Counted from the stretch's first letter, positions 53,607-62,281 are shown. The stretch is DNA of 64,000 bases from Clostridia bacterium (GCA_021152595.1 JAGKVC010000001.1:7380-71379); one strand, 5' to 3'. Program-made: numbers and translations. Notes: a model not told the origin generated them from the letters alone.

Positions 53607-54128
53607 TTACTGAATTGCATTGCAGAATAATAATCTGAGTGACAGCAGCAATATGTATATTCCGTAGCAAACAGCCAGCGACAGAATTCCAAACATGATA
53701 TTGATTATATTGTATTGACTGATGTCTGATTTTTTAATCGAAACAATCAATAGAGCTGCGGCTGCGGCGAAAGAAGCCGTACCGCAAATGACGGGATGTG
53801 TACCGAGTAAAAAAAGAAGGGGCAATTCAATTACAGTATATTCTAATTCCAGTTTGGGATAATACGAAATGCTTTTTCCGCAGCATTTGCTTTTGCCGTG
53901 AAGCAGTTTGCTTCCGATGAAAGGGAGCGTATAGAGCGTAGGAATCCGTGCGCCGCAATAATCACAAATGCAGTGACCTGAAAAAAGAAATGTGCGATTC
54001 TTTTTGTCGGCGCGAAATACAATCGTAGTGAACCACCCGCTGAGTGCAACTGTCATAACAGTACATATCACATACATGACCGCGGACATAATCAGTTGGT
54101 ATTTTTCCGTTGAATTCATAATCTCCAT
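53607..54128 (-). pseudogene. Prepilin-peptidase-like protein retaining the N-terminal Cys4 (DiS_P_DiS-type) region and the first Asp, but ending before the GxGD catalytic motif
   Basis: SGHCICDYCGARIPTLYTLPFIGSKLLHGKSKCCGKSISYYPKLELEYT resembles the PilD/ComC N-domain. LIVSIKKSDISQY aligns with the first Asp box. The ORF stops ~80 aa short. Confidence 0.55.
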
Positions 54129-54137
54129 GCCTCTTTG

Positions 54138-54584
54138 TTAATAATTGCCGCTGATCCCGGAGACTGCTGACCGAATGATATCTTCATTCAGATTGTCTTT
54201 AATGATCTGAACCTTATGATTCTGAACCAGAATCAGTGAAGGCGTTTTGAAGATTTCATATCGGTTGAGTGTTTCCTGATCTTCTTCTGTCAGATCTGAG
54301 ACATCAATTATGCCGCATTGCACTTTTTCGTCTTTACAAACGGTATTCAGAATTTGCTTGCATTCAGCACAGCTTTCGCAATACGGATCAGTAAACAGGA
54401 AAAGCCTGTTTCCCTCTGCCTCCAGTACCTGCGCGACATTTCCGGATGAAACAGGAACAAACACATCTGCATGATGATGTAAGCAAACGAAAACAGCCAG
54501 CACAGAGATCAAAAACAATGAAATGAACACAACCGTTCGGGCGAGCTTTGGCTGCTTCTGATTTCCCTCAGAATTGTTTTTCAC
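54138..54584 (-). CDS. Membrane-anchored thioredoxin-fold protein (CxxC)
   Basis: N-terminal TM, then LFLFTDPYCESCAECK with TPSLILV (cis-Pro loop-like). Confidence 0.7.
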   Translation of the reverse strand: MKNNSEGNQKQPKLARTVVFISLFLISVLAVFVCLHHHADVFVPVSSGNVAQVLEAEGNRLFLFTDPYCESCAECKQILNTVCKDEKVQCGIIDVSDLTEEDQETLNRYEIFKTPSLILVQNHKVQIIKDNLNEDIIRSAVSGISGNY

Positions 54585-55065
54585 TGATTACCTCCTTGAA
54601 TTCATCACTGGAAGCAATCGCAGAATGTTTGATTCCGTTATAAAAATACACCGGTACCACGCTGAGGTTATTGTCCTCCAGTTCATCTTCAATAATCGAG
54701 AGAACTTGCTCGTTTTCTTTTTTGATGCTTCCGGAATCAGACGGCTTATTGTAAAGCGTTTCCAGTTCATCATATTTCAGATTCAAGCAGTCATCGTTCT
54801 GATAAAAAGCACGATTCACAGGTTTGTATATAATGCAGTAGTCTCCGGAACTGATCATTTCCCTGATACATCCTGAAACTGCTTTACTGAACCGTTCACA
54901 TTTTTCGCATTGAAAGCTCGTAAAAATCACAAGCCGATTGGGCGCATTCTTATTTCCGTAAATCAGTCCGGTATCGGAGAACGAATAGACTTTTTCTTTT
55001 CTGGTTACTTCATAGACAGTTCCGATTCCGATCAATAAAGCCAGTATGATTAGAAATTTTTTCAT
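54568..55065 (-). CDS. Membrane-anchored DsbA/BdbD-like thiol-disulfide oxidoreductase (CxxC)
   Basis: N-terminal TM, then LVIFTSFQCEKCERF. Its length and helical insert resemble the DsbA fold. Confidence 0.65.
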   Translation of the reverse strand: MKKFLIILALLIGIGTVYEVTRKEKVYSFSDTGLIYGNKNAPNRLVIFTSFQCEKCERFSKAVSGCIREMISSGDYCIIYKPVNRAFYQNDDCLNLKYDELETLYNKPSDSGSIKKENEQVLSIIEDELEDNNLSVVPVYFYNGIKHSAIASSDEFKEVISEKQF

Positions 55066-55358
55066 TTTTCAACAACATCTTCTTTTTTCTTGCCCAGCAA
55101 GGTCTGCATCAGAAAAATGAGAAGAGCAAGAATCACAAAGATTGCACCGATTACAAGGAAAAGAGAATTTCCAAATACAATCGAAGTGAAATGACCGCCG
55201 TTATCAGCGCTCTCCGTTACAAATTCGACCAGTTCAAACGGATATTTCATACTTTTCTCCGTGAAAAAGCAGTACATAAAACCGCCTGCGATCGTCACAA
55301 ATGAACCAAGAAGCGTAATAAAAAACGAAATTCCAAGAGAGTTAGATAATTTTTTCAT
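55062..55358 (-). CDS. Small two-TM membrane protein (candidate immunity or accessory protein)
   Basis: 98 aa with two hydrophobic helices and a Lys/Glu tail. It is translationally coupled by ATGA overlap. Confidence 0.45.
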   Translation of the reverse strand: MKKLSNSLGISFFITLLGSFVTIAGGFMYCFFTEKSMKYPFELVEFVTESADNGGHFTSIVFGNSLFLVIGAIFVILALLIFLMQTLLGKKKEDVVEK

Positions 55359-55397
55359 AGTAGTCCTCCTTAAAATACTGATTTGTTATTGAATGGT

Positions 55398-60560: not shown

Positions 60561-60585
60561 GATTCAACCGTCCTGTGTCGTTCAT

Positions 60586-60918
60586 TTAGATTTTTTCTGC
60601 TCTGATTTTTACAATATCCGGCTCCCATGCAATTCCTTCAAGGAATTCTGCCGGAAGCTCGCTGAGTTGAAATTCACATGTTTGTTCCATATTTGATGTA
60701 AGATGCTTTTGAAATTCATTCAACAGATTACCGGTAATAGCCGATCGCGTTACGATACACGGCTCATCATTTTGATATTCATCATGACTGATTTTCAGAA
60801 TGTAATTCTCGCTTGGCACCAGTTCTGAAATCATAACGCTCTGTATCAGATTGTTGTTCTGGTCAAAGCATCTTAATATCAAACGGTTATTCTTTTTTCG
60901 CTGGAAAATCTTTATCAT
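60586..60918 (-). CDS. 110-aa cytoplasmic protein of unknown function within the cluster
   Basis: The ORF is tightly packed between nifS and the Trx-CcdA gene (gaps of 25 and 10 nt). I recognise no motif in it. Confidence 0.5.
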   Translation of the reverse strand: MIKIFQRKKNNRLILRCFDQNNNLIQSVMISELVPSENYILKISHDEYQNDEPCIVTRSAITGNLLNEFQKHLTSNMEQTCEFQLSELPAEFLEGIAWEPDIVKIRAEKI

Positions 60919-60928
60919 GGCAGTTTTG

Positions 60929-62185
60929 TTAAATACCTTTCATAATAGTATAAATAATAAAGCCTAAAAAGAACAAAACATTCAGCAATTTGATGTATAC
61001 CAGTTTGTCCGTAAACTTTACGGACATTTCAAAAGCATTTTTTCCGCGTGAAACCATTAAGACAATCAGAAACAGAGGCAATCCGCAGAGCACGCTGTAT
61101 AACAGCATGTAACCCATAGCTGTTCCGAGTGAATATTGCGTGTTTGTTGAGTGGATCATATTCACGATCGTCATCAGATAGATCTGACCTGAACATAAAA
61201 ACTCAGTACATGCAATCAAAGCACCGATTGCAATGCCGATTACACTCAATATGATTCCGTTGTCATAATTTGCAGCTTTTCGTATGAGATTGTGATTGAA
61301 TTTTCTGAAGGAAGCAGGAATCTGTGCAGCAAAATCTTTTTTTCTGCCCAGAACAATATTGATAAAGTCATAAAGATTCTCCAGCAGCAGTATCGTATAT
61401 AAGCCTAATAAAACGATGTTTACAAATCGCAGGAGATTGGTATTCTCAATATAAGCAAACGATCTGAAGAGAATTGTTCCGAGCAAAAAAAATGAAATCG
61501 TCTTTCCGATACAGAACGAAAGCCCGACTCGAAGAATATGTTTTGATTTTCTGCTTGCCAGAGCAATCAGCAGAAACAGCATCATCGAAAACGAACACGG
61601 ATTCAGGCTGTTCACCAATGCGGATGAGCATAGTTTCAGCAGATCAATCGAAGTATTGCTCTTTGCGTATGCACTGCTTTCCAGGATTTCTTCCGGAAGG
61701 CGCGCGTTCGCGTAGTTTTCCTGTTCCAGAACAGAAAGGAATTTTGTTTTTATATTGGCACTTCCCTGAAGGTATGTGTTTCCTATAAAAACGATCGGGA
61801 CATTGTTTGCTTCTGCTTCGCTTACCTGATAGACCTGGCAATATGCTGTGAGAAGATCAATATTGTCTTCTTCATAGATATTCATTTTTTTTACACTGAC
61901 ACGGTTCTTTGCAGCATTCTGATCAAAGAATTCTCCGGTCTCGTAACAGCTTTCACAAGTAGTGGAGTAAAAGTATACTGCAATCGTTTCATCTGTGCTT
62001 TCACTTGCATAAACATGATTGATGCTGTTACCCATGATACAGAACAGCAATGATAATATGATTATGAATATTCGTAGTATGGAATTTGGAATGTAATGTG
62101 GTTTGACGCTTTTAGACATAAAATGATTTGTTTTTTTCATTATGTGTTGAACAACTTTCCTGAATATAAGTGGTGAGACGTACAA
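60929..62185 (-). CDS. Fusion of an extracytoplasmic thioredoxin-fold domain (CxxC) to a CcdA/DsbD-family thiol-transfer membrane domain
   Basis: Signal anchor, then AVYFYSTTCESCYETG..VPIVFIG, then 6 TM with LNPCSF and TEFLCSGQ (paired membrane Cys motifs). The start may be Met 62140. Confidence 0.75.
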   Translation of the reverse strand: MYVSPLIFRKVVQHIMKKTNHFMSKSVKPHYIPNSILRIFIIILSLLFCIMGNSINHVYASESTDETIAVYFYSTTCESCYETGEFFDQNAAKNRVSVKKMNIYEEDNIDLLTAYCQVYQVSEAEANNVPIVFIGNTYLQGSANIKTKFLSVLEQENYANARLPEEILESSAYAKSNTSIDLLKLCSSALVNSLNPCSFSMMLFLLIALASRKSKHILRVGLSFCIGKTISFFLLGTILFRSFAYIENTNLLRFVNIVLLGLYTILLLENLYDFINIVLGRKKDFAAQIPASFRKFNHNLIRKAANYDNGIILSVIGIAIGALIACTEFLCSGQIYLMTIVNMIHSTNTQYSLGTAMGYMLLYSVLCGLPLFLIVLMVSRGKNAFEMSVKFTDKLVYIKLLNVLFFLGFIIYTIMKGI

Positions 62186-62252
62186 GTGAAACTATTTTTT
62201 GAATTTGAATTATTACATTCTGTAGAAATCACGATCTAAAGATTCGATATGA

Positions 62253-62281
62253 ATTATAACATCAACTAGTCTGTCTGTCAA
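62253..62281 (-). promoter_or_regulatory. Perfect-consensus sigma-A promoter driving the minus-strand island operon
   Basis: On the minus strand, TTGACA - 17 nt - TATAAT lies ~70-110 nt upstream of the first CDS. Confidence 0.65.

Follow-up and report, generated by a model that had tools for sequence, protein, structure and literature searches.

What is made by the minus-strand operon at positions 53,607–62,281 of a 64,000-nucleotide (nt) stretch of DNA from a Clostridia bacterium (JAGKVC010000001.1:7380-71379)? The whole of this stretch is called the window here, and all coordinates are counted from its first letter. An earlier note on the DNA had described the operon as a processing and export system for peptides synthesised by ribosomes and modified after translation (RiPPs), where a RiPP recognition element (RRE) fused to an M50-type protease would act on two short, duplicated gene products. 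Our analysis arrives at a similar picture. The system is real, conserved and uncharacterised: a variation on leader processing that is guided by an RRE and takes place within the membrane, to which a sulfur/redox module of unexplained role is attached. Its product is probably a bacteriocin-like, membrane-active pair of peptides that are trimmed of their leaders and closed by a disulfide.

All twelve open reading frames (ORFs) that the earlier note had placed here were recovered on the minus strand, in the same order and at the same positions, and the coordinates given below for operon genes are for this strand. The genes are tightly packed, with intergenic gaps of −44 to +85 nt; the one exception is a spacer of 357 nt between the gene of peptide B and that of the ATP-binding cassette (ABC) ATPase. 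Domains were assigned by Pfam and NCBIfam profile scans of the 12 ORFs. As the note had said, domains of the radical SAM, YcaO, Lan, lasso-cyclase and ATP-grasp kinds did not turn up in these scans, so none of these class-defining RiPP enzymes is encoded by the operon ORFs.

A protein of 284 amino acids (aa) is encoded at 58533..59387. A PqqD-type RRE occupies its residues 1–100 and is followed by a four-helix metalloprotease part, giving the layout of an RRE joined to a site-2/M50-like leader peptidase. The PqqD domain (PF05402) is matched at 7e-7, with 29.9 bits against a cut-off of 23.4. The protease half has no match to the M50 family of Pfam (PF02163), and its sole Pfam match is to DUF3267 at 0.017. 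A word-indexed homologue search returned one near-identical copy only, and it took an exhaustive HMMER search to reveal the family, which comprises 39 relatives, about 30 of them full-length. H180, E181, H184 and D269 are invariant in the 31 proteases that were aligned, and L263, P265 and G270 of an LLPxxGDG motif are nearly so. The profile built from these 31 members matches the Methanocaldococcus jannaschii site-2 protease (3b4r) at 9e-12, and structures of PqqD and lasso B1 proteins (3g2b, 5sxy, 6jx3 and 5v1u) at 5e-9 to 2e-5. An AlphaFold2 (AF2) model of the protein has a mean confidence (pLDDT) of 93; its best Foldseek match is TbiB1 bound to its leader (5v1v, target TM-score 0.76), while the Foldseek match to 3b4r is weak, at rank 26. 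Evidence from sequence, profile and structure model thus agrees that the protein is an RRE fused to a site-2-type protease, as the note had proposed. Hydropathy and the AF2 model further predict that both zinc motifs, which are separated by a loop rich in Lys and Arg, lie at cytoplasmic helix ends on the RRE side of the membrane, in keeping with the earlier idea of a cytoplasmic RRE.

Directly downstream are the genes of two 72-aa peptides, peptide A (58259..58477) and peptide B (57955..58173), each with a strong ribosome-binding site of the AGGAGG type, as first noted. The two are 60% identical and share the same motifs: in peptide A these are an N-terminal Y3-x-x-P6-x-M8, a hydrophobic helix at about residues 22–46 and a Cys47-x23-Cys71 pair. 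A family of 26 such peptides could be compared. The Cys-x21-25-Cys spacing is kept in every one of them, with the second Cys 1–3 residues from the end, and all have a highly conserved helix (VVWYVVAIAIL...) and a basic tail with the conserved motif KGKxFTGxW...V.LGC. The very last residue, by comparison, is variable; I, M, T, Q, N, K, E, Y, R, S, SG and DLP were all seen at the C-terminus.

The peptides can be linked to the protease through their N-terminus. A [Y/W]xxPx[MILV] motif is present there in all peptides encoded beside an RRE-bearing protease (25/25). The sole protease without an RRE, a 179-aa protein of the gut metagenome contigs L024–L026, is paired with a homologous 83-aa peptide that has no leader motif. 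This joint loss of motif and RRE is the best available evidence that the YxxP motif may serve as the recognition sequence of the RRE. It is worth pointing out that the leaders of lasso peptides carry the closely similar YxxPxL (PMC10368454). In each lineage examined the peptide is found together with the protease, which suggests that the two 72-aa peptides are the substrates of the RRE-protease, as the note had supposed for its short duplicated genes.

How far does this association reach? We read the genomic context in about nine independent lineages and scored it with phmmer and hmmsearch. Peptide, ABC ATPase, a permease of about 490 aa and the protease were found together in all of these lineages in varying gene order, and with a two-helix protein of about 95 aa they make up the core of the system. 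Nine of the 39 protease relatives were inspected for genomic context, and all nine lie within a peptide operon of this family. Chance adjacency of the operon genes was rejected on this conserved synteny. The family is sparse. It occurs in Ruminococcus-like bacteria, Lachnotalea, Enterococcus hirae/faecium, several Bacilli and one Chloroflexi genome, and its members are annotated throughout as "hypothetical" or "PqqD family protein". Two metagenome scans for family loci gave zero loci and one locus, respectively, and neither a viral sequence scan nor a tblastn search of plasmids gave any. The peptide family was not found described in the literature searched, which covered peptide strings, PqqD combined with desulfurase, thioredoxin (Trx) or bacteriocin, and RRE clusters in E. 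hirae or Ruminococcus.

The lineages differ in what surrounds the core. Shouchella lonarensis/Bacillus sp. and Staphylospora marina have the five core genes only. E. hirae, in which the peptide was found in 398 collection blocks, has the core without a detected two-helix protein and adds a PedC-like Trx, and a Chloroflexi metagenome-assembled genome has the same core. Lachnotalea glycerini DSM 28816 has all the components of the window in a different order, except for the 148-aa Trx protein and the A24_N ORF described below, and its cluster adjoins genes for AgrB, a kinase and a LytTR regulator. The L024–L026 contigs (about 6080–12870) carry the RRE-less protease, the 83-aa peptide, a PedC-like Trx and the three-gene group with NifS that is taken up below, with a kinase and a LytTR regulator upstream. 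Of the genes whose co-occurrence the earlier note had asked about, the peptide goes with the protease in every lineage, and NifS and the Trx-DsbD_2 fusion do so in some lineages only. Together with the 148-aa Trx and the A24_N ORF they stand outside the core, given the five genes of the Bacilli and the single PedC-like Trx added in E. hirae.

The transporter of the window consists of an ABC ATPase (56842..57597; ABC_tran, 2e-25) and a protein of 495 aa (55398..56885). The ATPase is a stand-alone subunit of the ABC-2 type without a C39 domain. Its NCBIfam matches are all below cut-off (TIGR01188 at 4e-47, TIGR03740 at 2e-34 and PmtC at 1e-27) and place it nearest to the DrrA, lantibiotic-protection and Pmt-like types, the last of which exports phenol-soluble modulins (PSMs). 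The 495-aa protein has no Pfam match. It has about 10–12 hydrophobic segments, its gene overlaps that of the ATPase by 44 nt, and this gene is conserved beside the ATPase gene in all family loci; hydropathy, overlap and synteny make it the putative permease. One strain of E. hirae has an intact permease gene (11058–12542; 491 aa), and in two others the gene is broken into a pair of ORFs (L005/L006 versus L007); the break may reflect decay of the system in some strains.

Next to the permease gene is that of a 98-aa membrane protein with two helices by hydropathy (55062..55358), of which homologues or positional counterparts are present in L002, L003/L004, L014, L017, L018 and L024. Its candidate roles are those of an accessory to the protease or the transporter, or of an immunity protein. 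In two loci (L019, 8001–9182; L021, 3825–4994) the protease is 389–393 aa long and has an equivalent segment of about 95 aa fused to its C-terminus, which suggests that the two-helix protein works together with the protease.

The operon is rich in thiol-redox proteins. A membrane-anchored DsbA-like thiol-disulfide oxidoreductase (54568..55065) has an N-terminal anchor, a C53-E-K-C56 motif and a match to Thioredoxin_4 at 7e-10, with homologues in L002, L003/L004 and L014. A membrane-anchored Trx/Grx-like protein of 148 aa (54138..54584; C69-E-S-C72; Glrx-like at 2e-6, Thioredoxin at 4e-4) was found in contigs of the window lineage only. Oxidoreductases of the DsbA-like and PedC-like kinds have been recruited repeatedly, with PedC-like domains in the relatives E. 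hirae, L002 and L024. The presence of such proteins, predicted to act outside the cytoplasm, fits the two conserved cysteines of the peptides, as had been suggested.

The remaining redox component is a group of three genes, which we will call the trio. The first encodes a membrane-anchored protein of 418 aa (60929..62185), for which gene callers elsewhere place the start at about 62119 (396 aa). It has a C77-E-S-C80 motif, six hydrophobic segments in its membrane half, an N-P-C197 and a C331-x-G-Q; C77xxC80, N-P-C197 and C331-x-G-Q are invariant in its family. The note had called it a Trx-CcdA fusion. For the Trx part of this assignment, a match at about 1e-4 links the profile of the family to thioredoxins. 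The window protein itself has no Pfam match, its homologues carry PF13386/PF00085 through matches that are sub-threshold or precomputed, and the membrane half has no sequence match in the PDB. We assign it as a Trx-DsbD_2 fusion with medium confidence. It resembles CcdA/DsbD in its six predicted helices, an essential-looking Cys in helix 1 and another in helix 4, and an outside Trx domain with a CxxC; it differs in lying below all Pfam thresholds and in being paired always with a Cys protein of about 100 aa and, usually, a NifS.

This Cys protein, the second of the trio, is in the window a soluble protein of 110 aa with a single Cys (60586..60918), set in a motif, D-x-P-C54-[IV]-[IV]-x-[RK]-[ST], that is invariant in the family alignment. 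Its gene always comes directly after that of the Trx-DsbD_2 protein, an adjacency seen in five lineages. No Pfam, NCBIfam or PDB match was found for it, either alone or as a profile, and comparison with an RRE profile showed no similarity (hhalign probability 0.4%). Its single-sequence AF2 model, with a pLDDT of 43, is unusable. The third is a class-I cysteine desulfurase of the NifS/IscS type (59409..60560; Aminotran_5, PF00266, 4e-74), which matches TIGR03402 at 2e-139, under the equivalog cut-off (464 vs 531 bits), and has both the pyridoxal phosphate (PLP) motif SSHK and the catalytic loop GSAC326HS. The three genes are adjacent in the window, L014–16, Lachnotalea and L024–26, the Trx-DsbD_2 protein of the last being present in 361 collection blocks. 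The association of the trio was not found in the literature searched on desulfurase, CcdA and persulfide.

A related arrangement was seen in Ruminiclostridium herbifermentans (L022, CP061336.1, 8791–11464), where a PedC-like double-Trx protein, a Trx-DsbD_2 and a Cys protein of about 100 aa are encoded next to SLH/S-layer genes, with no peptide, protease or NifS nearby. Because this pair occurs without NifS and without the peptide, Trx-DsbD_2 and the small Cys protein form a general module to which NifS is a frequent addition.

Taking together the observed domain identities, synteny, motif conservation and the joint loss of motif and RRE, we can propose how the parts would work. The leader of each 72-aa precursor, about 20 residues with the YxxPxM motif, would be bound in the cytoplasm by the RRE of the protease. 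The zinc site, at the cytoplasmic face of the membrane, would then cut off the leader where it meets the hydrophobic helix, or near that point. What is left, a core of about 50 residues consisting of the helix and the basic tail, would be expelled from the membrane by the ABC-2-type pump, which may also protect the producer, and the two-helix protein of about 95 aa would assist either the protease or the pump. Outside the cell the anchored DsbA-like and Trx-like proteins would close the Cys47–Cys71 disulfide. In anaerobes, the trio would have an accessory part, supplying the thiol machinery on the outside with redox equivalents or sulfur. Two further observations speak for a bacteriocin-like product: Agr/LytTR quorum-sensing genes adjoin the cluster in Lachnotalea and L024, with a LytTR fragment in the window, and the ATPase is closest to the types for lantibiotic protection and PSM export.

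Several points weigh against this proposal. The peptide family is known from its genes, with no recorded antimicrobial or other activity, and no operon gene could be assigned as a dedicated immunity gene. The helix is conserved beyond the needs of a core that simply inserts into a membrane, and may instead be a recognition element. The peptides are acidic or neutral on the N side of the helix and basic on the C side; by the positive-inside rule such flanks disfavour spontaneous insertion with the N-terminus in and the C-terminus out (N-in/C-out), the orientation that the earlier note had assumed and the one that would give the outside Trx proteins access to the cysteines without active export. 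Finally, a peptide with a plain disulfide gives a desulfurase nothing to do, and the trio may signal a sulfur modification that was missed.

The trio itself may be read more boldly. It could be a new pathway in which sulfane sulfur derived from cysteine is delivered to a CcdA-like protein, and serves either as an extracytoplasmic disulfide oxidant that releases H2S or for trisulfide insertion; strict anaerobes poor in quinones would in this way have a substitute for DsbB, here recruited to peptide maturation. From the chemistry and the synteny, the NifS persulfide would pass via Cys54 of the 110-aa protein to the DsbD_2 domain, where it would act as an oxidant (giving disulfide and H2S) or as a sulfur donor. 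We hold this idea very tentatively and think it more likely wrong than right by some distance.

An unlikely explanation, which nevertheless fares best among the rivals, is that the operon makes a sulfur-modified RiPP, with NifS and the 110-aa protein sending sulfane sulfur through the Trx-DsbD_2 protein to Cys47 and Cys71, to form a trisulfide, a persulfide or some other thio-modification. The trio has been kept beside the peptide family in four Clostridial lineages in spite of reshuffled gene order, the small protein has its one invariant Cys, and NifS retains both the PLP-binding Lys and the catalytic Cys. The peptides of the Bacilli, E. hirae and Chloroflexi have the same two Cys with no NifS, however, so that the peptide family as such is not NifS-dependent. 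The occurrence of the Trx-DsbD_2 and small protein in R. herbifermentans without NifS or peptide also argues against it, as does the lack, among the operon genes, of a sulfur-inserting enzyme that acts on peptides.

Less likely again is a signalling system, in which the site-2 protease cuts a small membrane peptide and the resulting fragment leaves the cell by export, to act as a pheromone or regulator. Peptide pheromones of Firmicutes are made by site-2 proteases and ABC exporters, Eep and PptAB being the pair that acts on enterococcal and streptococcal peptides. Two-component genes of the Agr/LytTR type, moreover, adjoin the Lachnotalea and L024 loci and possibly that of the window. Yet Lachnotalea has its own AgrB beside the kinase, suggesting that the two-component system serves to regulate the operon and not to sense what the operon makes, and the loci of the Bacilli and E. 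hirae have no adjacent sensor. Duplicated precursors with dedicated disulfide enzymes are, furthermore, typical of bacteriocins.

A third course, close to the working model of the earlier note, is that the protease cuts inside the helix of an N-in/C-out peptide, and that the soluble Cys-x23-Cys tail alone is set free on the outside. Site-2 proteases do cut within or near transmembrane helices, and it is the tail, with its conserved KGKxFTGxW...V.LGC, on which Trx proteins outside the cell would act. No supporting evidence was found that the cut falls inside the helix and not where leader and helix join. By prediction the zinc site is at the cytoplasmic helix end, far from where the substrate helix ends on its C-terminal side, the distribution of charge opposes the orientation required, and the helix sequence is strongly conserved; in the daptides, which offer a precedent, the helix is the product (PMC10036551). 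We regard release of the tail as improbable, and the least likely of the three.

That the operon is itself a daptide gene cluster is as good as excluded on gene content: for all the shared leader-peptidase architecture and the hydrophobic duplicated precursors, its 12 ORFs include no DapB (DUF-RRE), no oxidoreductase of the alcohol dehydrogenase or short-chain dehydrogenase/reductase (ADH/SDR) kind, no methyltransferase and no class-III aminotransferase (the only PLP enzyme is the class-V desulfurase, not a class-III PF00202 protein), and the peptides have a variable C-terminal residue in place of Thr and a different leader motif.

The daptides are, all the same, the closest relatives in logic of the leader-trimmed, disulfide-closed peptides that we favour. 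They were found through an RRE placed N-terminal to an intramembrane site-2 protease, with hydrophobic helical precursors and ABC transporters nearby (PMC10036551). The mpa cluster of Microbacterium paraoxydans (Ren et al. 2023, PMC10036551) has in MpaP/DapP the same RRE-site-2 leader peptidase, together with several paralogous precursors that have a recognition motif at the N-terminus and a core formed by a hydrophobic helix; the likeness to DapP is one of architecture as described, a limit that must also be counted against our interpretation. The note had held that no described RiPP class works by this logic, a claim that fails because daptides were discovered through the same fusion. Apart from the tailoring enzymes and the C-terminal Thr of daptides, the differences are that the leader motif of the window family is YxxPx[MIV] where that of daptides is ELExMEAP, that this family has a conserved pair of Cys and goes with thiol-redox proteins, and that the hosts are Firmicutes and Chloroflexi.

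Other known systems share fewer features. Epipeptides and pearlins use M50 proteases, and the epeXEPAB/yydFGHIJ operon of Bacillus subtilis likewise combines a small peptide, a membrane M50 protease and a two-component ABC transporter (PMC10885120). It differs in that a radical-SAM epimerase is required, the protease has no RRE and the peptide is not a Cys loop; no match to PF04055 or SPASM, the enzyme type that marks epipeptides, sactipeptides and ranthipeptides, was found among the operon ORFs. Structurally, nothing matched the RRE half of the window protein better than the lasso B1 RRE, and the leader motifs are nearly the same, but the partner here is a membrane metalloprotease, and the operon has neither the transglutaminase-like B2 cysteine protease nor the Asn-synthetase-like cyclase. 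In pediocin (PedC) and sublancin (BdbA/BdbB) production, the disulfide is made by Trx-fold proteins encoded in the cluster. The combination of a cationic peptide with cluster-encoded oxidoreductases is common to these systems and that of the window, which lacks the double-glycine leader, the C39 peptidase-ABC transporter and a Sec signal. Hallmarks of class IIa/IIb bacteriocins are likewise missing from the operon: there is no C39 domain, and the leaders are YxxP-bearing and acidic or neutral.

If a leader-trimmed, disulfide-closed peptide pair is indeed the product, RRE-guided intramembrane leader removal would reach beyond the daptides, the one group in which it is known to date, to peptides that seem to need only a disulfide, and the boundary between RiPPs and class II bacteriocins would be blurred. 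A new precursor family has been defined, which is common in E. hirae and occurs also in Clostridia of the rumen and gut. The natural RRE-less variant with its YxxP-less peptide offers a ready test of leader recognition, and the trio opens a concrete way to test how strict anaerobes provide thiol chemistry outside the cell with redox equivalents or sulfur.

There remain some features of the locus itself. The AT-rich island described in the note is plainly visible: the GC content falls from about 0.55 to 0.35–0.43 from about 53.5 kb, directly after lysA, and stays low through the window end, so that only one border of the island is seen within the window. Against this border, beside lysA, lies the last ORF of the operon (53607..54128), which encodes 173 aa with the N-terminal domain of a prepilin peptidase only (A24_N_bact, 2e-6), the profile scan having found no Peptidase_A24 domain. 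It is absent from all the other lineages compared, and is probably a remnant outside the system. The host of the window is Ruminococcus-like, and its LysA belongs to a 90% identity cluster in which R. flavefaciens 007c is also represented.

Upstream of the operon, the perfect-consensus promoter of the note was confirmed as a sequence-based prediction, TTGACA-17 nt-TG-n-TATAAT at 62253..62281 on the minus strand, with a 12/12 match and the TG upstream of the −10 element. Promoter-like sites in the window as a whole number 27 against 31 expected in shuffles, so they are not enriched. The attenuator hairpin claimed for the 357-nt spacer did not hold up. Reading of the sequence gives, at 57901–57878 on the minus strand (57878..57901), a bulged 7-bp stem and then ACATTTTC, with four T only, which is at most a possible, weak partial terminator. 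A terminator scan made no call at this hairpin, shuffled sequences fold as well as the spacer does (z = −0.55), and a significant attenuator structure was rejected on both counts. An Rfam search of the window gave no match, and no tRNA genes were found in it.

The region beyond the operon has some interest of its own. Three sigma-70 promoters with a 12/12 match are found within 1.7 kb, at 62281–62253 (−), 62587–62615 (+) and 63898–63870 (−). Just before the window ends at 64000 is an ORF of 127 aa (63515–63898, −) with a partial match to the LytTR DNA-binding domain (E = 0.002), which is possibly a quorum-sensing regulator of the operon cut by the window end. Past this point, in another sequence of the window's species (L008, 49–3199), the low-GC island goes on, and encodes a LanFEG-like ABC ATPase with two ABC2_membrane_4 permeases, as well as another ABC ATPase.

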